This document shows, piece by piece, positions 566 through 14,048 of a DNA stretch of 24,000 nucleotides. This DNA is from Desulfofundulus kuznetsovii DSM 6115 (GTDB lineage: Bacteria > Bacillota > Desulfotomaculia > Desulfotomaculales > Desulfovirgulaceae): the NCBI RefSeq assembly GCF_000214705.1, contig NC_015573.1:1798911-1822910 (forward strand). The letters run 5' to 3'. The notes beneath the pieces are model-generated. The model searched no databases, had not been told where the DNA came from, and was given only the letters and a program-made list of their open reading frames with translations. The translations under genes were made by a program, and so were the position numbers. How positions within the stretch are numbered: the first letter of the stretch is position 1; each line of letters begins with the position of its first letter.

Positions 566-621
566 GGGCTATCCCCCTTTCATCGCAACGCTGCCCCGAC
601 AGACATCACTCCTGATACACA

Positions 622-834
622 AAGTTTACAACATCCAGCCTGGTCGTGCAAGACGACGCAAGGCGAACGGCGCAGGACGTTATGTCCGGAAGGTCCTTCC
701 AAAACCACGTCGGCGGGGGCAAACAAAACCTTTCCGTCAATGCTTTTGCCGGAGTATGCTTTAGTCCTGCCGCTCATCTTTTTCCAGTGTATCTTATGCC
801 GGGAGCAGCGCAATAAACCTGGCCAGGCCCAGTA
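622..834. repeat. Segmental duplication, copy A (paralogous to 2833..3039)
   Basis: By-eye alignment runs from AAGTTTACAACA... through GGAAGGTCC, CGGGGGCAAA and TTAGTCCTGCCGCTCATCTT to GCCGGGAGCAGCGCAATAAACCTGGCCAGGC(C/T)CAGTA. Similarity stops abruptly after CAGTA (834 / 3039). Confidence 0.8.
761..834 (-). pseudogene. 3'-terminal remnant of a channel-like membrane protein gene (paralog of 2966..3637)
   Basis: The minus strand reads ..LLGLARFIALLPA*, versus ..LLSLARFIALLPAPGTMDKDERQD* in the intact gene. Only about 25 codons are left and there is no upstream coding continuation. Confidence 0.7.
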
Positions 835-895
835 AAAGTGCCTGGCACCAGACATAACCGGGCTATTATGCTTTTCGTGTTTTTGGAAAGGTCTG

Positions 896-925
896 TTGTC
901 AAAACCTGGTGATAGGGGGTATAAT
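896..925 (+). promoter_or_regulatory. Putative sigma-70-type promoter for the MNT/HepT pair
   Basis: TTGTCA (896-901), an 18-nt spacer, then TATAAT (920-925), about 40 nt upstream of ATG 967. Confidence 0.45.
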
Positions 926-966
926 TTAAGCATCGTGAATATCCCGGTTACAAGGGACGTGGGACG

Positions 967-1377
967 ATGAACAATTACCGGAAATACCTGCAGGGCCACC
1001 TGAAAGAAGTGGCCCGGGAAGAAAAAGAACTGGAGCAAAAAGCAGGCTTGGCCCGGGAAAAGGCCGGGGAAATAGCCCGGCAGCTTGCCCGCCGGTTCGG
1101 CGTGACAAAGGTCTGCCTTTTCGGGTCCCTGGCCGCGGGTGATTTTGATCAGTTTTCGGACATAGATCTGGCCGTGGCCGGACTCCCGGAAAAGGAATAC
1201 CTGAAGGCCTACGGGCTGGCGGAAGAGATGGCCCGCCCCTTTGCGGTGGATCTGGTGCTCCTGGAAAATGCCGTGGAAACATTAAAGGAACGGGTGCAAA
1301 AAGAAGGGATTGTCTTATATGACCGCCAGGGAGAGGAAAATAGCCCGCTTAAAACGCCTGATATCGGAAATAAATGA
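967..1377 (+). CDS. mntA: Nucleotidyltransferase (MNT/MntA-type antitoxin of HEPN-MNT type VII TA systems)
   Basis: Carries the pol-beta-fold NTase signature GSLAAGDF(x5)SDIDLAV. It is small (136 aa) and sits directly upstream of, and overlapping, a HEPN-motif gene. Confidence 0.8.
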   Translation: MNNYRKYLQGHLKEVAREEKELEQKAGLAREKAGEIARQLARRFGVTKVCLFGSLAAGDFDQFSDIDLAVAGLPEKEYLKAYGLAEEMARPFAVDLVLLENAVETLKERVQKEGIVLYDRQGEENSPLKTPDIGNK

Positions 1378-1843
1378 AGACTTGAGGGCAATTGATCAGA
1401 TTGCCGGTAAAGCCCGGGCTTTATTAGAGGAAGTGAATGCCAGAACCGGTCCCGTGCCCGACCGAGATCTGATGGCCATGGCAGCCTATTTGCATCATTT
1501 TTACACGGGTGTGGAATCAATGTTCGAACGCATTTCGCGCCAGATCGACGGCGGGCCGGTTAAGGCCGGAGACTGGCACCGGGAACTTTTAAGAAGCATG
1601 GCCGTAGAACTGGAAGGACTGCGGCCCGGGGTCATATCCCGAGAATTAATGGAAGAGCTGGATGAATACCGCCGCTTCCGCCACCTTTTCCGCCATGCCT
1701 ATGCCGGTGAGCTGCGCTGGATGAAAATGTGCCACCTGGCGGAAAATATGGGCGATATCCTAGGTCTTTTAAAGGGCAAAATGGACCAGTTCAAGACATT
1801 TGTTACGGGTGTGATCGAAGAACTGGAAAAGAACATTGAATAA
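1319..1843 (+). CDS. hepT: HepT-like HEPN ribonuclease toxin
   Basis: Rx4HxY HEPN motif in EYRRFRHLFRHAY, paired with the NTase gene. The track starts at TTG 1310. I prefer ATG 1319, preceded by GAAGGGA, though the start remains uncertain. Confidence 0.7.
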   Translation: MTARERKIARLKRLISEINEDLRAIDQIAGKARALLEEVNARTGPVPDRDLMAMAAYLHHFYTGVESMFERISRQIDGGPVKAGDWHRELLRSMAVELEGLRPGVISRELMEELDEYRRFRHLFRHAYAGELRWMKMCHLAENMGDILGLLKGKMDQFKTFVTGVIEELEKNIE

Positions 1844-2116
1844 TCGCAGTTTTACCAGTGGGCCTGTTTTTTACAAAAAGCATTGGTGAATGGGTGATTA
1901 TACGCATGGGCGTCTACCTGGGATTGGACATTTTGCCGTGGGAGATCAAATAATCAATGCCTTTCCCCTACCCGTCCTGCGCCTTGGCTACGAAGAAAAG
2001 TTTGGTTATCGCCGGCTTCTGCTCAATCTTCCTTCCAATAAGGTCAGATGGCTAAAAAGGTGAATCCGTTATCATTAATATTAGCCCCGGAAGAGCAGGA
2101 GCCGTTATTTACAAGC

Positions 2117-2785
2117 TCAGATCACTCCCATCTCGCGCAGTGCCTCCACCCCGGCCGGGGGCGGGTCCTGCCAGAGCCAGGCCGTTTTCAGCCGGAGGCC
2201 GGGGATAACTTCGGAATGGTAGACTCCTCCGGCACCGGCGGTGTGCAGCCGGTAGCGCTCCTCTTCCCCCAGGCGGTAAAATTCCGCCTGCTGCCGGTCG
2301 GGATCGATCAGCCAGTACTCCTTAACTCCCGCCGCTTCGTACTCCACGTATTTCTCGCCACGGTCCCGGGCGAAACTTTCCGGGGAGGTGATCTCCACCA
2401 CCAGGTCCGGAGCGCCGTCGAAATAAGTGGGCTTCAACCGGTGCAACCGCTCCCTGCTGATAAACACGATGTCCGGCTCGCGCCCCCGTTCTTGTGGTGC
2501 AGGCAGCTTGATGGTAAAAGGCGCCGGAATTACTTCGCCCAACTGCCGCATGAGAACGAAGTTTCCCAGCAAATCTCCCAGGAACCTGGCAATTTGCTGG
2601 TGCTTCACCCCCGCCGGGGTAAGGACCACCACCTCCCCGTCCACCCACTCCGCCCAGGTATCCTCGTCTCCCCACGCCAGGAACTCTTCGAAGGTCATGC
2701 GGCCCGGCGTCTTTTCGGATTCCCGGTCAACCGCATAAGCTGCGCTGGTCTCCCGCACCGCTTCTTTTCCGGCCTGAATGCTCAT
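2117..2785 (-). CDS. Uma2-family (DUF820) endonuclease, copy B
   Basis: 222-aa ORF with Uma2-type motifs: EWVDGEVVVLTPAG..H, EPDIVFISRERL, GAPDLVVEITSPES, EYWLIDP. It shares a 24-nt identical block (2395-2418 = 226-249) with copy A across the APDLVVE motif. Confidence 0.85.
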   Translation of the reverse strand: MSIQAGKEAVRETSAAYAVDRESEKTPGRMTFEEFLAWGDEDTWAEWVDGEVVVLTPAGVKHQQIARFLGDLLGNFVLMRQLGEVIPAPFTIKLPAPQERGREPDIVFISRERLHRLKPTYFDGAPDLVVEITSPESFARDRGEKYVEYEAAGVKEYWLIDPDRQQAEFYRLGEEERYRLHTAGAGGVYHSEVIPGLRLKTAWLWQDPPPAGVEALREMGVI

Positions 2786-2832
2786 GTACTCACCTCCCGA
2801 CCGGCAGGACTAATGAAATACATCGATATACT

Positions 2833-3039
2833 AAGTTTACAACAACCCAACCGGCCGGGCAAGGTGACCCAAGGTGAAACGGGGCAGGATGTTCACCCGG
2901 AAGGTCCATCCACGTCAACGGGGGCAAATTAAATCTTCCCGGCTATGCTTTGCCGGCGTATGTTTTTAGTCCTGCCGCTCATCTTTATCCATCGTACCGG
3001 GTGCCGGGAGCAGCGCAATAAACCTGGCCAGGCTCAGTA
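2833..3039. repeat. Segmental duplication, copy B (paralogous to 622..834)
   Basis: See copy A. This copy covers the Uma2-B upstream region plus the true 3' end of gene 2966..3637. Confidence 0.8.
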
Positions 3040-3637
3040 GCGTCATAAACAGCCCGGTTATCGACTGCGCCCACAAAACATACAGACCGATTATTGTCTG
3101 GGCTTTTATGCCGGGAGAACCGAAATTGGTCATGACCACAAAACTGGAGTAAATTATCTCAACCAATGACCCATTCATATTTTCAAATCTAAATTCACCC
3201 GCCAGGACAAGGTAAGCAGCCGCGAACCAGAATATTATTTCAAAATAATTATGCAAAAGCAGCAGAACGGTCCGGCGGTAGCTTCGCACGGAATAGTCCC
3301 TGCTCCGGGCCCTGGCCCTGTGCTCATCAAATAAAAGGACGTTTACCTGGTAGACGGTAATTTCAAAGATCCTCAGGAAGGCATAGACCAGAATAAAATA
3401 ACGCAGGGGGTTAAAATCTATATACCTGATCAATACTACGGCTAAAAAAGATGCGATTAAGTGACCCAACACCCACGCGTCTACAAATATATAACGTTTC
3501 TGGTTACAGAGCCGGTTACGGAATAAATAGCTGATCAATTGGAACAAAGATATCCATTTCAAAACAGCGAAAATCCCGGCCCAGAAGTCTACTATAAACG
3601 TTCGTTCCTCAAGTGTTCGTTCATCCCGGCTGTCCAT
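2966..3637 (-). CDS. Integral membrane protein with a degenerate K+-channel-like pore region
   Basis: About five hydrophobic helices. Between the last two lies SLVEIIYSSFVVMTNFGSPGIKAQ, which resembles a pore helix plus filter (canonical ..TxTTVGYGD) but has TNFGSPG instead. AT-richer than the flanks and 24 nt downstream of gene 3662..4594. Confidence 0.6.
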   Translation of the reverse strand: MDSRDERTLEERTFIVDFWAGIFAVLKWISLFQLISYLFRNRLCNQKRYIFVDAWVLGHLIASFLAVVLIRYIDFNPLRYFILVYAFLRIFEITVYQVNVLLFDEHRARARSRDYSVRSYRRTVLLLLHNYFEIIFWFAAAYLVLAGEFRFENMNGSLVEIIYSSFVVMTNFGSPGIKAQTIIGLYVLWAQSITGLFMTLLSLARFIALLPAPGTMDKDERQD

Positions 3638-3661
3638 TATTCACCGTTCCAGATTATGGAA

Positions 3662-4594
3662 CTATAACCTCTCTTTCAGCGCTATAATAACCAGTTCCGA
3701 ACGTTCAAAGCCGGTAGCCAAGGACAGCAGATCCAGCCTTCCCTTTACATCCGGCCGAAATCGCGGCGTCAACAGATATGTACCCTTTGGGGTTCTTTCG
3801 TGTTTTAACAGCCAGCGGTAGCGTCTGGCGGCATCACACACGTTTTCCACCCACTGTTTGTCCATCCATTCGCTCAGCAAATTATTCAACAAACTGGAAT
3901 AACCCTCTCCCCGAAGTCGATCATACAGGTCATAGGGCAGATAAATGGATGTCCGGCAGGTTCCCCGGTGAATTCCGGCAAGTTCCTGCCACTGAATTGC
4001 CCATTGCCTCCATTGTTCAGCCATACTTTTCCTGAACATGCTGGTGTGCATCAGCGGTTCAACCAGTGCCTGAAATTTCCGCACCTCAAGACGCGAAGAA
4101 ATGTCCAGTCTTCCCTGTCCATCGATGTTTGCAGAAATATTAAATTTACTTTGCAGCAGGAACCTGAGAAAAGACTTTTCCTCCAGAGTATAGGATTCCG
4201 TGGATAATATTACCCGGCGGCCGCCCTCTTTTAAGTTTCCGTCATCCTGAAACCAGATGGCAAGCCCATCCGCTTCTAAATTTTGGGCAACCCAATCCAT
4301 GGGGATTACTTTGCGCCCTTTATACCAGGTGGGGTACAATTTTTTCAGTAAAGGGGAAGTCCTGGACTGGCACAAAACCCTTACGTACTTCTTCTGCGTT
4401 CTGCGGTCAAAATTACTTCTAACCTGCATCCCGTTGGGGCCATAAGGCAGATAGTTTGCAAACAAATGAAAGCAATACTCGGCGTAGCTCTTATCTGCCA
4501 GCGCATGAATAAAACAAAACCGCGGGGCCCTGTGGGTCACGTTCATATACCCGTCGCCCAGCATTTTTCCGGCAAAGAGGGAAGCAAAAGCCAA
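3662..4594 (-). CDS. Free-standing double-motif LAGLIDADG homing-endonuclease-like protein with a C-terminal extension holding two RHH-like motifs
   Basis: Two LAGLIDADG-type motifs at the usual spacing: SLFAGKMLGDGYM and ADGLAIWFQDDGNL. The flanking pattern is also typical (YPTWYKGRKVIP, LSTESYTLEE, FNISANI). The C-terminal ~115 aa contain TSIYLPYDLYDRLRGEGYSSLLNNLLSEWM and LTPRFRPDVKGRLDLLSLATGFERSELVIIALKERL, both with a strand-helix-turn-helix RHH pattern. TTG start at 4594 with GGTGA 6 nt upstream. Confidence 0.7.
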   Translation of the reverse strand: MAFASLFAGKMLGDGYMNVTHRAPRFCFIHALADKSYAEYCFHLFANYLPYGPNGMQVRSNFDRRTQKKYVRVLCQSRTSPLLKKLYPTWYKGRKVIPMDWVAQNLEADGLAIWFQDDGNLKEGGRRVILSTESYTLEEKSFLRFLLQSKFNISANIDGQGRLDISSRLEVRKFQALVEPLMHTSMFRKSMAEQWRQWAIQWQELAGIHRGTCRTSIYLPYDLYDRLRGEGYSSLLNNLLSEWMDKQWVENVCDAARRYRWLLKHERTPKGTYLLTPRFRPDVKGRLDLLSLATGFERSELVIIALKERL

Positions 4595-4667
4595 GGAAGT
4601 TCACCACTTTTTAAGAAAAATCATCTTTCATGCCTGGCATAAAAATGGATCTCTGGTGATAATTTTT

Positions 4668-4696
4668 TTGATTTCTTTGGCCTCCTAATTTACATT
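4668..4696 (+). promoter_or_regulatory. Putative sigma-70 promoter of a candidate small RNA
   Basis: TTGATT (4668-4673), a 17-nt spacer, then TACATT (4691-4696), preceded by a T-rich tract. Confidence 0.35.
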
Positions 4697-4702
4697 CAGA
4701 AC

Positions 4703-4775
4703 CATCCCCAATGTGATTTAAATTGGGGGTGAAGTACCCCGCCAGAGAAAGCTGTCACCAGCTCCCTCTTTTTTT
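4703..4775 (+). ncRNA. Candidate ~70-nt small RNA: two hairpins, the second an intrinsic terminator
   Basis: Hairpin 1 is CCCCAAT-9 nt-ATTGGGG (4706-4728). Hairpin 2 is AGAGAAAGCTG-TCAC-CAGCTCCCTCT (4744-4769), followed by T6-7 (4769-4775). No plus-strand gene lies upstream that it could terminate. Confidence 0.3.
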
Positions 4776-4909
4776 CACATTATAACCCCGTGTGAAATGA
4801 TGCGCCTCAGTTTCCTGAGGAAAAGAACGGCAGGGCGGGGATTCTCAAAGTTAAGAGAATTGCCAAAAGCCATTTTGACATTGGCAATCACCCCCTTATC
4901 TGTTAAACT

Positions 4910-5110
4910 CAAATTAGATAGCAGGAAAGCTAGCCCAAGCTAGCCAAAAATATAGCCAAAGGTTTCCGGGAAAAGGATTTCACCTCCTGACAGTTCGACT
5001 GCTTACAAAAGAGCTACCTTTCCCGGATCAAATTTGCAGACTGCGGTTCATAGAAGGGTTGTGCTTCGAGCACCACGTTAGATAAGGCCCACTGCCAGTC
5101 TGCAGCCAAT
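4910..5110 (+). ncRNA. Candidate IS110 bridge RNA in the left-end non-coding region
   Basis: A 223-nt untranslated left end upstream of the recombinase. It has a 5' hairpin GCTAGC-CCAA-GCTAGC (4929-4944). Stem 4965-4976/5017-5027 encloses a ~40-nt loop. Stem 5035-5043/5096-5104 encloses an inner hairpin GTGCT-TCG-AGCAC with two internal loops. Confidence 0.4.
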
Positions 5111-5132: not shown

Positions 5133-6341
5133 ATGTACTTCGTAGGGATTGACTGGTCTGACCTGCATCATGACGTAGCTGTGCTTGATGAAAAAGGTCA
5201 CGAGCTAAAATATTTCACCATCCCTCACAACAGAAAAGGCATGGAGTTATTAAAGGAAAGGCTCTTGAGCATCGATCCCGAACCGGAAAACTTCGCCTGC
5301 CTGCTCGAAACCAAAAACGGTCTTCTGGTGCAGTTTCTGCTGGAAGCCGGCTTTCCGGTTTACCCGCTCAACCCGAAGATTGTGGATTACCGGCGAAAGC
5401 CCTCCGGGGCAAAGAGCGACCCCATCGATGCCCGGCTGCTGGCCAACATCGGCCGTTCCGACCTGGCGCAGTTGAAGAGGCTTAAGCCAGATGCGGAACT
5501 GATCGCGGAACTAAAGATGCTCACCCGGGACCAGGACAGCCTGATCCAGGAATCCACCCGGCTGACCAATAAGCTCATAGCTTGCCTGAAGGAGTATTAC
5601 CCGGTAGCCCTGGAATTCTTCTCGAAGCCAACCCTGCCGGTAGCCCTGGAATTTTTCAAGCTTTACCCCACCCCGGATCTGGTCAGGGAAGCTACCGTCC
5701 CGGAGATGGCCGCTTTTCTGAAAAAGCATAAACATCCCCGGCCCAACCAAACGGCCATCTCCATCTGGCAGAAGGTGCATGAGCCGCAGCTTCAGGCCAG
5801 CGCTCCCACCGTGCGGGCAAAAGGCCGCTTAATGCTCGCCCTGGTGAGACAGTTAGAGGTAGTACAGGAGCAAATCGCTGCTTACGACGAGGAGATCAAC
5901 CGCCTTTTTCAGCAGCACTCCGACAGCAGGATCTTCGCTAGCCTGCCAGGGGCGGCCGGGCGGCTTGCGCCAAGACTGCTGGCGGAGTGGGGGGACGACC
6001 GGGAACGTTACGAAAATGCGGCCGTGGTCCAGGCTTTAGCGGGTACCTCGCCGGTTCTCTTTCAAAGCGGCAAGTACCGCTTTGCCAGGCAGCGCAGATC
6101 CTGCGTAAAACCTTTCCGACGAGCTCTGCACCTGTTCGCCTTCCAGAGCATCAGGCAGGTTTCCTGGGCACGGGAATATTACGACACCAAGAGAAGCCAG
6201 GGCAAAACCCACCATGAGGCTTTGCGGGCATTGGCAAATATCTGGGTACGAATAATCTTTGCCATGTGGAAAAACCGTACTTGCTACGACGAAGCCACAT
6301 TTCTCGCAGCCCGTGCCAGGCATCTTAGTCGGGCAGCATGA
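5133..6341 (+). CDS. IS110-family DEDD transposase/recombinase
   Basis: N-terminal RuvC-like MYFVGIDWSDLHHDVAVLDEKG. The C-terminal Transposase_20-like region reads LASLPGAAGRLAPRLLAEWGDDRERY...LAGTSPVLFQSGK. RBS GGAGG lies upstream of ATG 5133. Confidence 0.9.
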   Translation: MYFVGIDWSDLHHDVAVLDEKGHELKYFTIPHNRKGMELLKERLLSIDPEPENFACLLETKNGLLVQFLLEAGFPVYPLNPKIVDYRRKPSGAKSDPIDARLLANIGRSDLAQLKRLKPDAELIAELKMLTRDQDSLIQESTRLTNKLIACLKEYYPVALEFFSKPTLPVALEFFKLYPTPDLVREATVPEMAAFLKKHKHPRPNQTAISIWQKVHEPQLQASAPTVRAKGRLMLALVRQLEVVQEQIAAYDEEINRLFQQHSDSRIFASLPGAAGRLAPRLLAEWGDDRERYENAAVVQALAGTSPVLFQSGKYRFARQRRSCVKPFRRALHLFAFQSIRQVSWAREYYDTKRSQGKTHHEALRALANIWVRIIFAMWKNRTCYDEATFLAARARHLSRAA

Positions 6342-6376
6342 TGTTAAATATTCGGTTTTCAATGTTCTTTAGCCGC

Positions 6377-6438
6377 CGGCGAGGGCTGGATTTTAATCTG
6401 GCCCTCGCCGGGCGGAGCGGGCGAAGCCCGTCCTTTTT
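6377..6438 (+). terminator. Tandem hairpins / intrinsic terminator after the IS110 transposase gene
   Basis: CGGCGAGGGC-14 nt-GCCCTCGCCG (6377-6410), then CGGGC-GAA-GCCCG (6418-6430), followed by TCCTTTTT. Confidence 0.55.
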
Positions 6439-6670
6439 AAAAACCGCGAACACTTGTACTACCTAAAATTTTTTGATAAACCTATTGACATAGAAGGTCT
6501 TTTATGCAAGTATTAAACTTATCTGCCGGTGCTGCCAATATTGGATCCTGCCGCCGGGCCTGCCTGGCGTGGGGGTTAACAAGTTAAGTGCCTGGCACTA
6601 GGTTCGACATTGCTTCCGGCTTACGCAAGCTCGGGTAGAATACCGAACTGGCCCTGTCACTGATTGGAAT

Positions 6671-7708
6671 TTAGATAGTGCGACTTTGACGAGGACCTGG
6701 TACCAATTTAAAATGCTTATGGGCAAGTGCTGCATAAGCGAGTGGCGACCGGTAAAGTTCTTGTTTATATCTGTAACCTTGAAACGCTCCGCTTACGGCC
6801 AAAATTAAAGACGAAGTCGCGTTGGTTACCAAACCAGTATAATTATCTAAAGAATTCATGGTAAAAAGTTCAGTTACTAAAGGTGTTATTGCGCAAATGC
6901 TACCCAACATAGTTTGCCAACGGTTTGCATTCATTTTTGAAATAAGTTCTTCAATTTCCTCTTTAAAATTTTGGCGTGCTAACTTAATTTTTTCCTGCCT
7001 TAAACTGTTATCTGCTATCGATGAAATATTTATAAATAACGATTCTAATCGTTGTCTAAATCTTCGTAATTCATCTCTATAACGCCCCTTGAATTCTGCA
7101 ATTTGATACGGGCTAACACTTGTAGATGGTGCAGGTAGAATGGATTCAACAAAATCAATAATAAAATTATTTTTGGCAATCATTCTGTTGAGGTTTTTTT
7201 TGTTAATCTTCATATGATGTATCTGAATATTCTTCAAATAATCGGTAACAGGTATAAAATTATGTTCAACCTGACCCAGTACAAACGCTAGGTAAGTCAT
7301 AAAATATATTGCAGTATTTTCTTCCACAAAATACCATGATGAGTTCTTTTGATAGGCGAGACCTCTTTCGCATAGTTCGCGGCCTATATCCGACAATTTT
7401 TCAATATGGATCTCAACATATCGGAATCGGAAATTGTTCCGAATGGAACGTACAATTGGAGTATTATCGAGAAATTCAAAAAAGGATTCACTAAACCTTG
7501 GAACATTTTGTATATATTCTTGTGGAAATATTTGTCTTACTAAACCCTCTTTTACAAGTTCCCTCATATATGGACCTAAAGCTTCAGGCTTATAGATAAA
7601 TTCAAAGGGAACAATGGAGGCCACTTCATCCCAGTAAAGGAGTACTTGTGTAAACCATCTTGTTTGTGGAACTTGTATAAAGGGAAAATAAAGGGCAATA
7701 TTATTCAT
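6671..7708 (-). CDS. Hypothetical protein, family not recognised; strongly AT-rich
   Basis: 345-aa uninterrupted ORF in the most AT-rich stretch of the window. N-terminus is MNNIALYFPFIQVPQTRWFTQVLLYWDEVASIVP. The middle is charged and coiled-coil-like. Two moderately hydrophobic C-terminal segments follow: MLGSICAITPLVTELF and GLVTNATSSLILAVSGAF. AAGGAG sits 13 nt upstream of the ATG. Confidence 0.6.
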   Translation of the reverse strand: MNNIALYFPFIQVPQTRWFTQVLLYWDEVASIVPFEFIYKPEALGPYMRELVKEGLVRQIFPQEYIQNVPRFSESFFEFLDNTPIVRSIRNNFRFRYVEIHIEKLSDIGRELCERGLAYQKNSSWYFVEENTAIYFMTYLAFVLGQVEHNFIPVTDYLKNIQIHHMKINKKNLNRMIAKNNFIIDFVESILPAPSTSVSPYQIAEFKGRYRDELRRFRQRLESLFINISSIADNSLRQEKIKLARQNFKEEIEELISKMNANRWQTMLGSICAITPLVTELFTMNSLDNYTGLVTNATSSLILAVSGAFQGYRYKQELYRSPLAYAALAHKHFKLVPGPRQSRTI

Positions 7709-7742
7709 TTAACACATATCACTCCTTATGAAAAATAATCGA

Positions 7743-9627
<1,885 letters not shown>

Positions 9628-9633
9628 GCACAA

Positions 9634-9673: not shown

Positions 9674-9722
9674 TTACCGCAAGAGCTGGAGGACTGCCTG
9701 ATGCATCTGGTTGGCCTGTGCT
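9674..9722 (-). pseudogene. Flagellin 3' remnant, exon 2 (..AQANQMHQAVLQLLR*)
   Basis: AGCACAGGCCAACCAG...CTCTTGCGGTAA aligns with the fliC end AGCCCAGGCCAACCAG...TTGCTGCGGTAA. Confidence 0.8.
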
Positions 9723-10072
9723 CTGTCGGCCCGCCGCCTTTCGGCGGCGCCTAGACTATATCTTCATCCCACCTATTCCGGCGGGAGTCGGGCGCTTCGG
9801 GCGCCTCCATGCACCCTACGGGCTTCATCACCATACCTTGCGGCTGCAGGTGGTATGCCCTAGTCGTTGAACCTTCCCCAGCCTTTCGGTACAGGGGCTC
9901 GGCTGCTGGTTGCCCAATCCTTCCGGTTTTTTAACCGCTCACGCCTGCCGTTTCCGGCTACGTTGTCGGACGGAAGGCTCTAAGGGGTTCCCAGCAATTC
10001 ACCCGGTGATCCTCCCGGAAATTGCCCTCCGGAACGCCTGTGGTTCCGACGCTTCACTTTGCCAGAACTTCA
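9723..10072 (-). ncRNA. Group I self-splicing intron, ORF-less (350 nt)
   Basis: Core elements on the minus strand: P AAUUGCUGGGAA (9988-9999), Q AACCAGCAGCC (9901-9911), R GGUUCAACGACUAGGGC (9857-9873), S GAUGAAGAUAUAGUCUAGG (9750-9768). Pairings are P4 UGCUGG/CCAGCA and P7 GACUA/UAGUC. A terminal hairpin CGCCGCC-GAAA-GGCGGCG lies at 9732-9749. The upstream exon ends in U and the intron ends in G. Excision restores the flagellin reading frame. Confidence 0.8.
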
Positions 10073-10119
10073 AGCATGGCGGTTGCCGCCTGCTGCAGGA
10101 TGCTCATCTTGGTGAACTC
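10073..10119 (-). pseudogene. Flagellin 3' remnant, exon 1 (EFTKMSILQQAATAM-L)
   Basis: GAGTTCACCAAGATGAGCATCCTGCAGCAGGCGGCAACCGCCATGCT aligns with fliC CAGTTCGCCAAGATGAACATCCTCCAACAGGCCGCCACCGCCATGCT. There is no flagellin homology further upstream and no start codon. Confidence 0.8.
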
Positions 10120-10318
10120 TTCCAATACTTCCAACTCTTTAAGAGTCGGCCTAACCAAAACAAATGTTGTATTATGACATTTACTGCATGATGGAACAGT
10201 CTCACCTTTAACACAGATGATTTCATTATCCGTATTTGATGCACCTATAAATTCCAGATTGCGGTACTATACTACCAGTGGTTACAGTCAACTTTTATCC
10301 TCCCACTCAAAACCTTGT

Positions 10319-10388: not shown

Positions 10389-11645
10389 TTACCGCAGCAA
10401 TTGCAGCACCATCTGAGGCTGCTGGTTGGCCTGGGCTAGCATGGCGGTGGCGGCCTGTTGGAGGATGTTCATCTTGGCGAACTGCATCATCTCCTTGGCC
10501 ATGTCAATGTCGCGGATACGGGACTCGGCAGCAGTCAGGTTTTCAGAAGAGGTGCCGAGGTTGTTAATAGTGTGTTCTAGCCGGTTTTGATAAGCGCCAA
10601 GCTTTGAACGTTCAGCAGAGACTTTTTCTATAGCATTGTTAATTGTGGTTACAGCAGAGTTAGCCGCCTGTTTGCTAGAGATATCTATTCCCCTTACTGT
10701 CACTTCAGTTCCGTCAGTTATTGCGGCACTGAAAGTAATTAATGTGTTGCCAGCATAATCTTTAAATGTTATCGCATCAGTTGACACTGCAATTACCTCA
10801 CCGTTGCTATCCAACAACGCCTTTTGGGAACCGTCGTACTTATAAACCCCAGCTTGCAGTCCACTGTTAGCTACCTGTCCTGTAGCAGTAGCCGTGCCGC
10901 TGCTAATTGTAACGGTACCACTTTTAACAGCTTCTGTGAATGTTAGGGTATCGTCACCGCTTTTCGCTGCCCATGATTTGCCATTTGTGCTCTCGGCTAC
11001 TGCTTGTCCGTTCGCGTTGATGAGCTCATATTTGCCAGTCTGGTCATTTAGCTGGACAGTATACGTACCGTCAGCAATATCTACTACCGTGTTGCCGCCA
11101 TCTGTCACACTGGCAGTTACCTCAATTGTTGCATCTCCAACAACTCCAAGCGCATATGCGCGCATATCGTTGATGCCCACTGTCAGATTCTGCTTTTCAT
11201 TAGCCCCAATATGAAATACGCCTTTAAAAGTGCCGTTGAGCAGTTTTTGAGTGTTGAACTCGGTAGTATTTCCGATTCTTGAAAGCTCCTGAGAGAGCTG
11301 ATCTACTTCCTTTTGCAGCTCTTCACGGTCGACTGCAGTATTAGTGTCATTGGCAGATTGAACAGCCAGCTCACGCATGCGTTGAAGGATGCTATGGGTT
11401 TCGTTCAAAGCACCTTCTGCCGTTTGAATCAGCGAGATAGCATCCTGCGCATTCTTGGAAGCCATCTCTAGTCCACGAATCTGTGCCCGCATTTTTTCGC
11501 TGATGGCCAGGCCTGCGGCGTCGTCCCCGGCGCGCACGATGCGCAAGCCCGAAGAGAGTTTCTCCAGCGACTTGTTGGCCAGGACATTGTTAGTCGAAAG
11601 CTGGCGATATGTGTTCAGCGCCGCGATGTTGTGGTTGATGATCAT
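10389..11645 (-). CDS. fliC: Flagellin
   Basis: Conserved N-terminus MIINHNIAALNTYRQLSTNN..LSSGLRI..AGDDAAGLAISEKMR, conserved C-terminus ..RIRDIDMAKEMMQFAKMNILQQAATAMLAQANQQPQMVLQLLR, and a variable T/S/G-rich centre. Confidence 0.97.
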   Translation of the reverse strand: MIINHNIAALNTYRQLSTNNVLANKSLEKLSSGLRIVRAGDDAAGLAISEKMRAQIRGLEMASKNAQDAISLIQTAEGALNETHSILQRMRELAVQSANDTNTAVDREELQKEVDQLSQELSRIGNTTEFNTQKLLNGTFKGVFHIGANEKQNLTVGINDMRAYALGVVGDATIEVTASVTDGGNTVVDIADGTYTVQLNDQTGKYELINANGQAVAESTNGKSWAAKSGDDTLTFTEAVKSGTVTISSGTATATGQVANSGLQAGVYKYDGSQKALLDSNGEVIAVSTDAITFKDYAGNTLITFSAAITDGTEVTVRGIDISSKQAANSAVTTINNAIEKVSAERSKLGAYQNRLEHTINNLGTSSENLTAAESRIRDIDMAKEMMQFAKMNILQQAATAMLAQANQQPQMVLQLLR

Positions 11646-11780: not shown

Positions 11781-11975
11781 GGGGGAAGAAGGCACTTTTT
11801 AACGGACCGCCCCGCCGGGCGGGGGTAAGAAAGCGGCCTGACCTCCCTTTTAAGCCACTCCCGGCTGCCAATTATAACCCCCTGGCGGCCGTTTCCACGG
11901 AAAATGGACGTGCGGGCTGGCCATTAAATGTTCCCTGATAAGTCAATATTAGTATCCACCAGCACTTTAGCGCTC

Positions 11976-12200
11976 GTGAACCTCCCCCGGGACAAGCCCG
12001 GGGGCTTCGTTCCGGAGGTTTCTCATGTCATCGGAATGCTGCCTGCTAAAGCGCAGGTCTTACGCTTTCCTCGTGAGCTACATGGTCGCGTCACCACAAC
12101 CAGGCCCGGTCCATAGGCGTCTACTACTCATCGTAGATACGTCAGGCCGCTCTTTTCGGCGCCAATACCTGCGGCCGCAGGTATTCCACTTTCCCGGGCA
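11976..12200 (-). ncRNA. Candidate omega (reRNA) scaffold of TnpB, from the 3' end of tnpB to the right end
   Basis: Established TnpB biology places the guide-RNA scaffold across the tnpB 3' end and RE. Here the RE ends ..CCCCCGGGCUUGUCCCGGGGGAGGUUCAC, with the flank GAGCGCUAAAGUGCUGG as the prospective guide. The 5' limit is not determinable by eye. Confidence 0.45.
11984..12004 (-). repeat. IS605-type right-end subterminal hairpin
   Basis: CCCCCGGG-ACAAG-CCCGGGGG (plus-strand reading). It has the same loop and core as the LE hairpin. Confidence 0.7.
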
Positions 12201-13392
12201 GCTTGCGGCCCCTGGTGAAACTCCCGTACAGAGCTTTGTCAAGGATGCCGCTGGCTCCCAGCACGTCCCGGTGAATCCCGGTAAACCCGCAGGAAGCATT
12301 GCCGCACCGGTATACGCGCCCGGTCTGTCTGGTGTACTCCCCGCATACCGGGCAGGTGCCGGAGGTGCCACGCTCATCCACCGGAATCAGCTCTATGCCG
12401 TGACGACTGAGCTTGTATGCCAGCAAACCGCGCAGCTTGCCGAAGGCCCACTGGCTCATGCGCTGGTTGTGGTGTCTGCCGCAGTCCCTTTCGCGCACAC
12501 CTTCCGGGTTGCCGATGTAAGCCGTTTTAACGCTCCTTCCCAGGCACCAGCGGACGGCGTTGGCGGATACGGCGTGCAGGATATGTTCTATCCGCCGCTC
12601 GATCCAGTTGAGGAAACGGTACTTTTTAGCCAGGAGTTTCCTGCGCTTCCTGGAACCTTCCTTCGTTTTGGAAATGGCCCGTTGCAACTGCCGCAGCACC
12701 TTGTTTCTCAAGCGGTTGAGCGACCGGAGTAGCCTGCCGCTGATCACTAAAGCACCATCGCCGTCGGTGATGGTCAGGGCATGCACTTCGCCCGGGTCGA
12801 TGGCCGCACAAACGTTGCCCTGAACTTTTAACAGGGCCGGTTTCTCCACCGTTACGTGCAGCCAGTATTGATTACGGTGCCAGACCAGTTGCGCCTGCAG
12901 GATTGTGGCGTTGGTAAGCCCTTTCGGGAGCTTTACCATCAGCGGTTCTCTGCCCCAACCGTTGGAAAGTTTCAATATACGCCCTTTATGGGTAATGGCG
13001 GCTTTTTCCCAGGTAACAGTGAAAAACCTTTTCCGGCGGTAAGGGTACTTCCATTCAGTGTGACCCTGCAGGTGCAGTTCCCTGGTGCGCTCGCAGCACT
13101 CGAAGTAGGTTTCCACCACGGCCTGCACCGATTGGGAGTGAAGGCCGTATTTGCCTTTGAGCAGCGCTTTAATTGCACCTTCGCTCAGCCAGTAACCATA
13201 CCTGCCGTATATGGTGCGGTGGATGTTGCAGGCGGCGTTCCAGACTTTGGCCGCTTCCATTTGCAGGTTGCGGGCTAAAAGAGTTTGCTCCGGGTTAAGG
13301 TGCAGGGGAAACTTTTCCACCAGGACGTCTACGGCTTGCTCCAGGGAATGAGCTTTCGGTTCCTTGACCGCCTTGTTTTTGCACCGGCTCAC
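12142..13392 (-). CDS. tnpB: TnpB (IS605 OrfB-type RNA-guided nuclease)
   Basis: 416 aa. RuvC-I is AAIDPGEVH. The Zn finger is CPVCGEYTRQTGRVYRCGNASCG. RuvC-III is GIHRDVLGASGI. GTG start with a strong RBS GGAAGGAGGTGA 6 nt upstream. Confidence 0.9.
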   Translation of the reverse strand: MSRCKNKAVKEPKAHSLEQAVDVLVEKFPLHLNPEQTLLARNLQMEAAKVWNAACNIHRTIYGRYGYWLSEGAIKALLKGKYGLHSQSVQAVVETYFECCERTRELHLQGHTEWKYPYRRKRFFTVTWEKAAITHKGRILKLSNGWGREPLMVKLPKGLTNATILQAQLVWHRNQYWLHVTVEKPALLKVQGNVCAAIDPGEVHALTITDGDGALVISGRLLRSLNRLRNKVLRQLQRAISKTKEGSRKRRKLLAKKYRFLNWIERRIEHILHAVSANAVRWCLGRSVKTAYIGNPEGVRERDCGRHHNQRMSQWAFGKLRGLLAYKLSRHGIELIPVDERGTSGTCPVCGEYTRQTGRVYRCGNASCGFTGIHRDVLGASGILDKALYGSFTRGRKLPGKVEYLRPQVLAPKRAA

Positions 13393-13694
13393 CCGGTTTC
13401 ACCTCCTTCCGGAATGTTTTTTGAGCTTCGATGTATTTGCGGATAGTTTCGGCGCTTACATTACCGGCCGTACTAATGTAGCAGCCTCTACTCCACATGC
13501 CGCTGCCCCAGAAGTATTTTTTCTTAAGGCCTTTCCATCTGGATGAGTGTGTATCCGTAAGTGTTGCAGATTTCTTGAATTGTCAGTTTTACGGTGTCTT
13601 CCACCCTGCCGGTAATTACCTTATGCCGGTATTTTGGGCAAAACACGATATGGTAATTGATGTTATAGACGCAGTGGTTCATTTTTCCATTCAT
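13295..13694 (-). pseudogene. tnpA: IS200-type Y1 transposase tnpA with an internal deletion and frameshift
   Basis: The N-terminal piece is MNGKMNHCVYNINYHIVFCPKYRHKVITGRVEDTVKLTIQEICNTYGYTLIQME, then a stop (13524). The C-terminal piece, in another frame, is KKYFWGSGMWSRGCYISTAGNVSAETIRKYIEAQ. The HUH (..DHVHLL..) segment between them is absent. Confidence 0.8.
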
Positions 13695-13700
13695 AGCATG

Positions 13701-13729
13701 ATTATAGCACCAGAACAGGTGTTTGTGAA
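13701..13729 (-). promoter_or_regulatory. Putative promoter in the IS left end
   Basis: The minus strand reads TTCACA-17 nt-TATAAT, immediately upstream of the tnpA remnant. Confidence 0.45.
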
Positions 13730-13766
13730 TACATTTGTCGCCCTGACGGGCGACGCCCCGCTCGAT

Positions 13767-13785
13767 CCACGGGACAAGCCCGTGG
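13767..13785 (-). repeat. IS605-type left-end subterminal hairpin
   Basis: CCACGGG-ACAAG-CCCGTGG. A second hairpin GTCGCCC-GTCA-GGGCGAC lies just inside the element. Confidence 0.7.
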
Positions 13786-13805
13786 GTTTTCAGGGGCGGA
13801 TTTCT

Positions 13806-14048
13806 ATAAAGTTCCTCCCGCCGCCACCGCCGCCCCTGATCCTGTTTGCTGCCCGGCCTGAACCGGCTGAAAATAAATTGTTTTTCCCGCTCCCAGGCAG
13901 CGGGATTTTTAGGCATGGCCATTCCAGCAGATAGTTGCGCCTCAATGGCGCGCCTGATCAATTCCGCTTCCGTTACACCCAGTTCCCCGGCCTTTTTTTT
14001 AAGCAGGGCATTCTGATGGGCTTCAATATACACTTGCTTACGAATCAA
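13806..14048 (-). pseudogene. RHH (CopG-like) protein gene, copy 2, interrupted two codons before its stop by the IS605 element
   Basis: MIRKQVYIEAHQNALLKKKAGELGVTEAELIRRAIEAQL...WRREELY is about 70% identical to ORF 15087..15335. The last codons and stop (GAGCGCTAA) now lie at 11967-11975. The 174-aa track ORF 13524..14048 is a read-through chimera into the IS. Confidence 0.75.

Follow-up and report, generated by a model that had tools for sequence, protein, structure and literature searches.

The locus

The window, that is the whole stretch of 24,000 nucleotides of Desulfofundulus kuznetsovii that was analysed, contains two minus-strand open reading frames, here named gene A and gene B, which are separated by 24 nt (Table 1). 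Both are present as the preliminary description of this DNA had it, and they are indeed richer in AT than their flanks: the GC content is 0.44–0.48 over positions 3001–5000, against 0.55–0.60 around. The TTG start codon of gene A is preceded by the Shine-Dalgarno sequence GGTGA. No terminator-like site is found on the minus strand between the two genes, and gene B is probably co-transcribed with gene A in the window.

Table 1. Features of the window (a slash marks an intron insertion point)
Feature	Position	Strand	Evidence
Remnant of a diverged second copy of the gene B 3' end and downstream spacer (pseudogene)	614..834	-	repeats, tblastn, blastn
MNT/HepT toxin-antitoxin pair	MNT 967-1377, HepT 1310-1843	+	Pfam
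Uma2	2117-2785	-	Pfam
Gene B, 223 aa, predicted membrane protein (multi-pass) whose pore domain resembles that of K channels	2966..3637	-	ORF, family profiles
Gene A, predicted free-standing I-SceI-like LAGLIDADG homing endonuclease with C-terminal tandem RHH, 310 aa, TTG start	3662..4594	-	ORF, Pfam
Gene A, C-terminal domain (aa 205-310, 106 aa), two predicted beta-alpha-alpha units	3665..3982	-	AF2
Gene A, LAGLIDADG nuclease domain (about aa 1-195)	4010..4594	-	Pfam match, structural alignment
IS110-family transposase	5133..6341	+	Pfam: DEDD_Tnp_IS110 3e-40, Transposase_20 4e-15
AT-rich DUF6236 gene	6671..7708	-	Pfam PF19749, 5e-10
Group II intron with RT/maturase ORF (7808-9229)	7740..9631	-	Rfam RF02001 147 bits, RF01998 64 bits
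Flagellin 3' exon remnant, (A)QANQMHQAVLQLLR and stop, then terminator-like hairpin	9674..9721	-	translation, sequence
Group I intron without ORF, in flagellin site 2 (AML A/QANQ)	9732..10043	-	Rfam RF00028, 65.7 bits, E=8e-15
3'-end remnant of a second flagellin (5' exon piece EEFTKMSILQQAATAML)	10073..10119	-	sequence, translation, blastn
Intact intron-less flagellin gene, 418 aa	10389..11645	-	Pfam: Flagellin_N 3e-47, Flagellin_C 1e-30

Downstream of gene B, the toxin-antitoxin pair and Uma2 (967..2785) are bracketed by two copies of the 3' end of gene B. The duplication of this 3' end at 761..834, which had been noticed earlier, is real (760–834 and 2965–3039 are 89% identical) and is part of a larger diverged repeat, 171–834 versus 2340–3039, whose direct repeats D1, D3 and D4 are 76–89% identical. 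The second copy covers aa 188–223 of the gene B product, with 58% identity in tblastn, and its translation contains in-frame stops.

Gene A: a LAGLIDADG enzyme with an additional domain

The Pfam family LAGLIDADG_2 (PF03161) matches aa 7–163 of the gene A product with 84.9 bits, for a cut-off of 25 (E=8e-24), and PADLOC returns a match to HEase (1e-17), generic HEase models only. The first motif, LFAGKMLGDGY (aa 5–15), ends in GDG (D14) and the second, LAIWFQDDGN (aa 109–119), ends in DDG (D117/D118), about 104 aa further on. D117, D118 and G119 do not vary among 26 sequences of the family, and D14 is conserved in at least 90% of them. The AF2 model (pLDDT 95.5) has the pseudo-dimeric alpha-beta-beta-alpha-beta-beta-alpha fold, and Foldseek aligns it with I-SceI (1r7m) with E=6.5e-11, TM 0.73 and an rmsd of 2.6 Å over about 199 columns; WhiA and LAGLIDADG maturases are also among the structural matches. 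Judging from this model, gene A codes for a monomeric LAGLIDADG enzyme of the I-SceI type, whose active-site residues are intact. The monomeric fold, which had been proposed from the letters alone, is borne out, and so is the conservation of the catalytic acidic residues among homologues, which had been suggested as a check.

As in I-SceI and I-WcaI, catalytic Asp residues are found in both LAGLIDADG motifs of the gene A product, and its domains are of similar size. I-SceI differs in that its gene lies within a group I intron of mitochondrial rRNA and in that it lacks a further DNA-binding domain, whereas gene A is free-standing and its product carries the 106-aa C-terminal tail; the identity between the two is only about 20%.

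The C-terminal extension, first described as about 115 aa long with two ribbon-helix-helix-like (RHH) units, keeps these two units upon closer analysis. Its predicted topology is E-H-H twice, with strands at domain positions 13–15 and 69–71, each followed by two helices (AF2, pLDDT 93.4), and the best 11 matches in the PDB of a Foldseek search with the model are all TraY chains (probability 0.98, TM 0.55–0.57, E 0.07). The Pfam families RHH_5, RHH_3 and RHH_1 recur on both units, all below threshold (E 0.007–0.2), and phmmer finds no sequence similarity of the domain to solved structures, TraY included. We describe it as a predicted tandem ribbon-helix-helix within a single chain, with TraY as its nearest structural relative. 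When 1.84 billion representative proteins were searched with a profile, no such domain was found outside the A family: the search returned family members, fragments and spurious repeats in giant proteins. The idea that the domain is a widespread module fused to other nucleases was dropped, since only the A family was found.

Two known proteins offer a comparison. The best structural match, TraY, the relaxosome accessory protein of the F plasmid, likewise joins two RHH units in one polypeptide as a pseudo-dimer; it differs in being a stand-alone oriT binder that is not fused to a nuclease. In WhiA, as in the gene A product, a DNA-binding domain is appended to the C-terminus of a LAGLIDADG fold, but this domain is an HTH instead of an RHH and the catalytic residues of WhiA are lost, whereas gene A has kept them. 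To our knowledge WhiA is universal in Gram-positives, while gene A is sporadic. In gene A, the RHH domain would be a second DNA-binding module, which could provide either a longer recognition site or the autoregulation of the gene.

Regarding expression, a strict GAAC-N4-GTTC box lies 25–90 nt upstream of gene A in loci L004, L010, L011, L077 and L157, each of which contains a single such box, and near-matches occur in L003, L009, L012 and L074. The box is absent upstream of gene A in the window and in L007, the syntenic locus of a Desulfofundulus MAG. GAAC-N4-GTTC is the consensus of the LexA box in Firmicutes, and its position suggests that in several lineages gene A may have its own promoter under SOS control. 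Instead of a LexA box, the palindrome could be the operator of gene A's own RHH domain.

Gene A and the group I introns of flagellin

The A family is small (about 25 clusters) and has a patchy distribution in thermophilic or anaerobic Firmicutes. In 13 lineages, the flagellin gene next to gene A carries a group I intron (Rfam RF00028, 63–104 bits). These introns are ORF-less and lie in the most conserved C-terminal codons of flagellin, at one of two sites that are 66 nt apart, site 1 (RIRDVD/MAKEMM) and site 2 (AMLA/QANQ); the site-2 arrangement is found directly upstream of gene A in L011 and L013. The intron boundaries were mapped, and exon 2 of flagellin has 37 codons. The distance from the flagellin stop to the start of gene A is 117–160 nt in 6 of the 11 loci where it was measured, and 129 nt in L156. 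In all loci gene A lies past the flagellin stop, beyond the mapped 3' splice site, and is thus not encoded by the intron. The layout found in the 13 lineages, a group I intron that lacks an ORF, within a conserved host gene, and an adjacent free-standing homing endonuclease gene, is that of collaborative, or trans, homing.

The preliminary description had stated that gene A is not inside any intron or intein, which is literally correct, but it missed the group I intron 5 kb upstream and the link to flagellin introns across the family. It had taken the channel-like gene as the partner of gene A; the conserved partner is the intron-bearing 3' end of flagellin.

Decayed copies of gene A are found elsewhere in the family: a fragment in L013, a remnant of the C-terminal domain in L069 and frameshifted copies in L010 and L011. 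Such copies are expected from the life cycle of a homing endonuclease gene. We also compared the divergence of gene A with that of the introns. The Mantel rho is 0.67, but it is driven by one divergent pair, and without these two outliers it falls to 0.27 (p=0.06); co-divergence was therefore rejected as proof of co-mobility, and we count it as weak support.

In the window, the flagellin-intron module is decayed. The flagellin gene is intact and its C-terminus is uninterrupted, ending in QMVLQLLR. Next to it lie the remains of a second flagellin 3' end: an exon piece (10073..10119) that breaks off some 15 nt downstream of intron site 1 and that blastn aligns with flagellin 3' ends in L001, L007 and L013, followed by the site-2 intron and the last codons of the gene. 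The coordinates given for this intron in Table 1 are those of the Rfam match and its true extent is about 9722–10070; its core is 85% identical to the flagellin intron of Desulfurispora, and the exon junction was read from the sequence. This remnant is now 5 kb upstream of gene A, and the group II intron, the DUF6236 gene and the IS110 element lie in between. The group II intron, whose 5' end is GTGCG and whose 3' end is approximate (domain V, RF00029, matches weakly at 7683–7808), is inserted just past the flagellin terminator hairpin and parts the intron module from gene A. The DUF6236 gene lies between the group II intron and IS110, and the GC content drops to 0.33 at 7001–7500, within it; both this gene and the IS110 transposase are absent in L007. 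Probably the flagellin of the window was replaced by an intron-less allele, which left over the 3' remnant with its site-2 intron, and the group II intron, the DUF6236 gene and IS110 were inserted between this remnant and gene A.

Gene A itself is kept under purifying selection: the 31 substitutions that separate it from its counterpart in L007 give a dN/dS of 0.20. This selection acts, in both the window and L007, beside an intron-less flagellin, an observation that a host-beneficial role of gene A fits as well as a resistant target does.

Gene B: a predicted membrane protein with a channel-like pore

The C-terminal half of the gene B product is predicted to consist of a transmembrane helix, a pore helix, the sequence TNFGSP and another transmembrane helix, the transmembrane count being a by-eye reading of the sequence. 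Gene B itself has no Pfam match at E<=1, and we found 286 homologues. Ion_trans_2 (PF07885) is matched by 24 of 39 members of the family (best E-value 6e-7), and the family profile aligns with the pore domain of GsuK (E=0.003) and weakly with NaK and KirBac. The K+-selectivity signature T-V/I-G-Y/F-G (TVGYG) is missing: it is TNFGSP in gene B, and the consensus of the family is MTxFG. The gene B family is widespread and uncharacterised, with a predicted K-channel-like pore and a degenerate filter, in keeping with what had been read from the sequence at first. The resemblance to GsuK, NaK and KirBac, which are prokaryotic 2-TM K+ channel pores of the Ion_trans_2 type, concerns the succession of transmembrane helix, pore helix, filter and transmembrane helix; unlike them, the gene B product would bear additional transmembrane helices at its N-terminus, and it lacks a cytoplasmic gating domain.

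Possible roles of gene A

We propose that gene A encodes a free-standing homing endonuclease that mobilises the 3' exon of flagellin and its intron(s) by collaborative, or trans, homing, that this module has decayed in the window, and that gene B is a passenger; we consider this proposal reasonably likely. The homing activity and the target site of gene A are inferred. The enzyme would cut flagellin alleles that have neither the endonuclease gene nor the intron, in or near the conserved C-terminal stretch; recombinational repair would then carry gene A over along with the neighbouring 3' exon and intron(s), and the donor allele would be protected by the intron or by linked synonymous changes. 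Against the proposal, introns at two sites that are 66 nt apart accompany gene A, and a single target of about 20 bp could not be interrupted by both.

Regarding the target, the synonymous sites of flagellin are near-invariant from codon -3 to codon +8 around site 1, and their conservation decays outward. The three intron-less flagellins that coexist with gene A all differ at -1 and +9. This gradient and these changes hint that the target may be the intron site itself; the conservation around site 1 could also stem from P1/P10 pairing alone. The intron-less site-1 junction of a related Firmicutes flagellin is GACGTTGAT/ATGGCCAAAGAAATGATGGAG (also given as GACGTTGAT/ATGGCCAAAGAAATGATGGAGTTCAC), the site-2 junction is GCCATGCTGGCC/CAGGCCAACCAG, and the resident Desulfofundulus flagellin has the sequence GACATTGACATGGCCAAGGAG.

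A first alternative, which we regard as unlikely, is that gene A has been domesticated, either as a WhiA-like regulator that acts on the flagellin locus through its RHH domain or as a maturase that acts in trans on the flagellin intron at high temperature. RHH domains are typical of repressors, and the structural matches do include WhiA and LAGLIDADG maturases; the catalytic Asp motifs of the A family are nevertheless invariant or nearly so, contrary to those of WhiA. That gene A is under purifying selection in Desulfofundulus (dN/dS 0.20), where the flagellin beside it is intron-less, is consistent with domestication, while the very patchy distribution of the 25 clusters, the fragments and frameshifted copies, and the LexA-like box in several lineages all argue against it. 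Regarding the maturase, the splicing of a flagellin intron is reportedly temperature-dependent (PMC4853749) and a LAGLIDADG protein from Thermotoga is known to have maturase activity (PMC3984707). A maturase role alone is hard to reconcile with the genomes that have lost the intron but keep gene A.

It is quite improbable that gene A is an inert leftover from an earlier invasion, with no current activity, which has been kept by chance. The module of the window is broken by three insertions and the upstream regulatory region that bears the palindrome has been lost, as one would expect of a relic; on the contrary, the open reading frame is intact, the catalytic residues are kept, and the dN/dS value against L007 is that of a gene under selection.

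The preliminary description had tentatively seen in the two genes a dedicated system, in which gene A would be the nuclease or DNA sensor and gene B a membrane channel acting as effector, in the manner of abortive infection. The common strand, the 24-nt gap with no terminator-like site and the AT-richness common to both genes speak for it, as do the toxin-antitoxin genes close by. The same order is found in Desulfurispora (L001/L002), where the gap is 34 nt and gene B is very divergent (37% identity to gene B of the window, for 64% in the case of gene A). In other genomes, homologues of gene B occur in variable regions near SMODS, HipA, NERD and HEPN/MNT genes. The tight spacing, 24–34 nt in two lineages, is not explained by pure chance.

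The co-occurrence of the two genes tells against such a system. A tblastn search across 157 loci places gene B after gene A in the window and in Desulfurispora and in no other; gene B is missing in 12 other lineages of gene A and also in L007, the nearest relative, whose gene A is 96.5% identical to that of the window at the DNA level. Gene A and gene B were therefore rejected as a conserved pair. No LAGLIDADG gene was found near the four homologues of gene B that were checked in other genomes, and the genes upstream of these homologues are unrelated, mutually dissimilar and without PADLOC hits. One candidate, a 301-aa gene upstream of the closest outgroup gene B (L071), was considered as a hidden homologue of gene A and discarded, as there is no similarity. 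PADLOC returns no match for gene B, and with no conserved pair either, the two genes do not qualify as a known anti-phage defence system. In phage and plasmid collections neither gene is found at full length (distant LAGLIDADG domains only in the case of gene A, nothing in that of gene B).

The nuclease-plus-channel defence idea is thus not supported, and a dedicated two-gene system is very unlikely: gene B is only an occasional neighbour, while the constant neighbour and partner of gene A is the flagellin intron. Gene B is probably a passenger in the recombination-prone region downstream of flagellin, and no dedicated partner of gene A. There is equally little chance that the genes form a functional pair restricted to the Desulfofundulus and Desulfurispora lineages, where two very divergent gene B alleles each lie 24–34 nt after gene A. 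If they did, gene B might have for instance a membrane effector or addiction function, its expression being tied to gene A, perhaps via the RHH domain, and the flagellin-linked homing module would double as the carrier of a nuclease-plus-channel cassette.

Relation to known systems and significance

Hayakawa and Ishizuka reportedly described, in 2009 and 2012, group I (IA2) introns within flagellin genes from Geobacillus and thermophilic Bacillus. The introns that accompany gene A resemble these IA2 introns, which are ORF-less, self-splicing and located in the flagellin of thermophilic Firmicutes, and two Bacillus-type loci (L012 and L157) belong to the A-linked set.

Both the group I introns of flagellin and collaborative homing have been described before, and the two papers that deal with them neither mention an associated homing endonuclease nor name any mobility factor for the flagellin introns (PMC3984707, PMC4853749). 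De Maayer et al. 2016 described the LAGLIDADG genes edn1 and edn2 downstream of flagellin in the flaA2-flaG region of Geobacillus, solely as a possible cause of the loss of a glycosylation island; the word "intron" is absent from their paper (PMC5109656). By description and position, edn1 and edn2 resemble gene A, as LAGLIDADG genes located just past flagellin in thermophilic Firmicutes.

The closest parallels to the proposed mechanism come from phages: in cyanophage S-PM2, F-CphI is paired with the psbA group I intron, which is ORF-less, and in T-even phages mobE is paired with the nrdB intron. These are two cases of collaborative homing in which a free-standing endonuclease gene lies directly beside the host gene and the flanking exon is co-conserved. 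Gene A differs in that it is on a bacterial chromosome, with flagellin as host gene and two alternative intron sites. The phage enzymes are EndoVII- or HNH-like, whereas that of gene A is of the LAGLIDADG type with an RHH domain, and its cleavage at the intron insertion site is putative.

If our proposal is correct, it would explain how ORF-less group I introns, known since 2009, have spread among the flagellins of thermophilic Firmicutes, and it would give a role to the LAGLIDADG genes downstream of the Geobacillus flagellin. Collaborative homing, hitherto seen in phages only, would have in this module its first counterpart on a bacterial chromosome. The combination of a LAGLIDADG nuclease with a single-chain tandem RHH would be a new meganuclease architecture, and such extra DNA-binding modules are of interest to those who engineer rare cutters. 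Last, flagellins are surface antigens and phage receptors, and a homing endonuclease at this locus, with a possible SOS link in several lineages, may help to drive the frequent replacement of flagellin alleles.

The pairing of genes A and B

Gene calls confirm the ORFs of the nuclease gene A and of the channel-like gene B, and the domain-level observations that the preliminary description made on both were correct, but comparison does not support its reading of A and B as a dedicated pair. The neighbourhoods of A homologues were fetched from genomes and metagenomes, and every fetched locus was searched for B. B follows A in two places only, the window and Desulfurispora thermophila (L001/L002), the latter with a 34-nt gap. 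Between these two, A is 64% identical and B 37%; the Desulfurispora B, which has a changed pore motif, resembles the window B no more closely than it does members of the family from Gammaproteobacteria. In the closest relative, a Desulfofundulus MAG (L007) whose locus is syntenic with the window and whose A gene has 96.5% DNA identity to ours, the stop of A runs directly into sequence matching window 1610..1273, with no B, no Uma2 and no HepT 3' end. The closest outgroup homologue of B (65% identical, Syntrophomonadaceae MAG L071) is preceded by an unrelated 301-aa protein, and the genes before B in Tindallia, Marinobacter and a Bacillus-like contig are unrelated and also mutually dissimilar. 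Since B is absent after A elsewhere, including in L007, the pair fails the co-occurrence test that the preliminary description had set for itself, and gene order does not support a nuclease-plus-channel system; the juxtaposition in two lineages is a small unexplained residue.

B has no matches of its own in Pfam, NCBIfam or PADLOC, and no terminator-like site was found on the minus strand of the A–B gap. Its homologues (286 at E ≤ 1e-3) occur in Firmicutes and Gammaproteobacteria. Ion_trans_2 is matched by 24 of 39 aligned family members (best E 6e-7); positions 99–200 of the family profile align to the pore domain of GsuK (E = 0.003), and the profile weakly matches NaK, KirBac and K2P channels. 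The filter is TNFGSP, not TVGYG (family consensus MTxFG), and on these matches a K-channel-like pore with a degenerate filter appears to be a fair description. B is probably a passenger gene, of an uncharacterised Ion_trans_2-like family, adjoining A.

The GC content is 0.44–0.48 over 3001–5000 versus 0.55–0.60 in the flanks. The duplication of the 3' end of B is real (760–834 versus 2965–3039, 89% match). It lies within a larger and older direct repeat (171–834 versus 2340–3039, 72–89% identical, about 2.2 kb spacing), which spans part of Uma2, a spacer and the 3' end of B, and whose copies bracket an MNT/HepT pair. The short B copy has in-frame stops, which makes it a remnant of another B allele; the repeat resembles the outcome of an allele replacement in which the former 3' end stayed in place, much as in the flagellin remnant upstream. 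Unrelated lineages repeatedly have an MNT/HEPN(HepT) toxin–antitoxin pair near A or B: besides the one in the window, a pair follows A in a Clostridiales MAG (L004), and another is convergent with B in L071.

Gene A: nuclease and RHH domains

Residues 7–163 of A match Pfam LAGLIDADG_2 (E = 8e-24), and the generic homing-endonuclease model of PADLOC matches at 1e-17. Across 26 aligned family members, D117, D118 and G119 of motif 2 are invariant, and L12, G13, D14 and G15 of motif 1 reach 90% conservation or more. AlphaFold models the protein with high confidence (pLDDT 95.5, pTM 0.91), and over the first ~200 residues the model can be superposed on I-SceI (1r7m; E = 6.5e-11, TM 0.73, rmsd 2.6 Å) and on I-WcaI as well. 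The C-terminal 106 residues, modelled alone (pLDDT 93.4), form strand-helix-helix twice, and the top eleven PDB matches are F-plasmid relaxosome chains, all of them TraY (prob at most 0.98, TM 0.55–0.57), the classical single-chain tandem ribbon-helix-helix (RHH) protein. Pfam RHH models match both units repeatedly, below threshold. The two RHH-like units reported previously are thus backed by predicted structure and weakly by sequence, and this region looks like a tandem RHH. Its profile, run against 1.84 billion representative proteins, matches only A-family members or fragments, which indicates that the domain is specific to the A family.

The LAGLIDADG active site of A is intact, and a domain of DNA-binding type has been added to it; the gene is free-standing, and its product is a putative homing endonuclease of I-SceI type that carries a tandem RHH domain like that of TraY. 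The window and L007 copies differ by 18 synonymous and 13 non-synonymous changes (dN/dS 0.20), and A is still constrained in the window.

Group I introns in the neighbouring flagellin

Wherever an A locus extends far enough upstream, A has as its neighbour a flagellin followed by a small "Flagellin_C" ORF. In 13 lineages (Desulfurispora, Moorella, a Clostridiales MAG, two Firmicutes MAGs, an "Atribacteria" bin, a Bacillus MAG, Fictibacillus and five metagenome contigs), a group I intron (Rfam RF00028, 63–104 bits) lies between these pieces. The junctions are clean: the 5' exon ends in AAESRIRDVD (GAT, so U at −1), the intron (347–435 nt, without ORF) has an in-frame TAA six codons in and ends in AACG, and exon 2 is the last 37 flagellin codons, from MAKEMM to LLR and the stop. 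A second insertion site (site 2, between AMLA and QANQ) lies 22 codons downstream of this one (site 1, between RIRDVD and MAKEMM). Both are occupied in L011 and in Fictibacillus, and in Desulfallas (L013) a degraded site-2 copy is directly upstream of an A fragment. A starts 117–160 nt past the flagellin stop in 6 of the 11 measured loci, and 129 nt past it in L156 as well; in the remaining loci there are extra insertions between the two (188-aa ORF, DUF8042, FliB), and in Fictibacillus A is convergent with flagellin. The link between A and ORF-less introns in the best-conserved flagellin codons is tight and recurrent.

Some loci are more complex. In Fictibacillus sp. Mic-4 (L157), a single flagellin gene has three group I introns within it or beside it: one at site 1, one at site 2 and one shortly before the called start. 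In the L011 bin, site 1 carries an intron and, right after the flagellin stop, there is a site-2 intron with a duplicated 14-codon exon. In L069, a 30-aa piece of the C-terminal domain of A (2615–2704, 67% identical) lies right after flagellin exon 2, and an intact A lies 3.3 kb beyond, past FliB-like and DUF8042 genes; the piece is a sign that an older A copy either took an insertion or was replaced.

A proposed homing model

A would cleave flagellin alleles that lack it, and repair would then copy A along with the adjacent exon and intron(s). This layout is the same as that of the collaborative, or trans, homing of phage psbA/F-CphI and nrdB/mobE, described so far in phages only (PMC3984707). 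All three intron-less flagellins found alongside A (window, L007, L013) read GAC, not GAT, at −1 and AAG, not AAA, at +9, as would be expected of resistant sites, and the A fragments and frameshifted copies among the loci lend indirect support, since they fit the usual cycle of invasion and decay. Third-codon positions are near-invariant from codon −3 to +8 around site 1 and fall to 0.4–0.6 further out (13 lineages); this too supports the model indirectly, but P1/P10 pairing alone could explain it. Two observations speak against the homing model: one 20-bp target cannot be interrupted by both intron sites, and the correlation of A–intron distances is weak once one divergent pair is removed.

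Geobacillus and thermophilic Bacillus are known to carry group I (IA2) introns in flagellin that splice in a temperature-dependent manner (Hayakawa & Ishizuka 2009, 2012, as cited in PMC3984707 and PMC4853749). In Geobacillus, the LAGLIDADG genes edn1 and edn2 are described downstream of flagellin with no mention of an intron (PMC5109656). Our search, which covered the Hayakawa work through these citations, found no prior description of the A–flagellin-intron link or of a LAGLIDADG–tandem-RHH fusion; an earlier mention is possible.

A palindrome upstream of gene A

Past the flagellin terminator, canonical loci have a −10-like TATAAT and next a GAAC-N4-GTTC palindrome, 25–90 nt before the start of A. 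The strict match occurs in five lineages, as the sole one in each 5–17 kb locus, with near-matches in four more. We take it to be the consensus of the Firmicutes LexA (Cheo) box, and it may be that A is SOS-induced; our literature search found no description of a LexA-controlled homing endonuclease. The palindrome could also be an operator for the RHH domain of A itself. The window and L007 both lack it upstream of A, where only 28 nt are shared. A strict match 90 nt upstream of the Tindallia B homologue (L153 4900–4911) is a single case and may be due to chance.

The decayed module of D. kuznetsovii

Features of the window (in minus-strand order from the Y1 fragment) and of other loci
Locus	Feature	Position	Strand	Remarks
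Window	Y1 transposase fragment	13524-14048	minus	
Window	TnpB/Cas12f-like	12142-13392	minus	
Window	Flagellin	11645..10389	minus	intact, intron-less
Window	Zinc-ribbon-like ORF	~10160-10300	minus	short, apparently frameshifted/degraded; …GIYRC…SCSKCHNTTFVLV…
Window	Flagellin 3' remnant	10119..10073	minus	begins ~15 nt after site 1
Window	Group I intron, site 2	10043..9732	minus	Rfam 65.7 bits
Window	15-codon exon remnant, terminator-like hairpin	after site-2 intron	minus	
Window	Group II intron	~7740-9631	minus	5' GTGCG at ~9631; RT ORF 9229..7808
Window	DUF6236 gene	7708..6671	minus	AT-rich, GC 0.33 at 7001-7500
Window	IS110 transposase	5133..6341	plus	followed by A and B
Window	Gene A	3662..4594	minus	310 aa; TTG start, GGTGA before it
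Window	Gene B	2966..3637	minus	223 aa; start 24 nt past A stop
Window	MNT/HEPN(HepT) pair	967-1843		
L004	MNT/HEPN(HepT) pair	7476-8359		
L071	MNT/HEPN(HepT) pair	1871-2653		
L157	Group I introns	5712-6046, 6150-6510, 7573-7823	minus	Fictibacillus
L011	Group I introns	132-488, 603-930		
L004	GAAC-N4-GTTC	5976-5987		strict
L010	GAAC-N4-GTTC	7966-7977		strict
L011	GAAC-N4-GTTC	1146-1157		strict
L077	GAAC-N4-GTTC	918-929		strict
L157	GAAC-N4-GTTC	3957-3968		strict

The window contains a decayed copy of the module made of intron, 3' exon and A. The core of its site-2 intron is 85% identical to the site-1 intron of Desulfurispora. L007 lacks the group II intron, DUF6236, IS110 and the IS200/IS605 tnpA/tnpB pair (window ~11925–13986), which indicates that in the window later insertions, together with a replacement of the flagellin allele, broke up the module.

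The zinc-ribbon-like ORF lies between the intact flagellin and the remnant, and runs straight into the EEFTK of the latter. The group II intron begins immediately past the terminator-like hairpin of the exon remnant, an insertion that fits the pattern of terminator-targeting bacterial group II introns; the DUF6236 gene is wedged between this intron and IS110. Relative to L007, the IS200/IS605-type insertion is upstream of flagellin.

Gene A belongs to a probable flagellin-intron mobility module, which is decayed in the genome of Desulfofundulus kuznetsovii.
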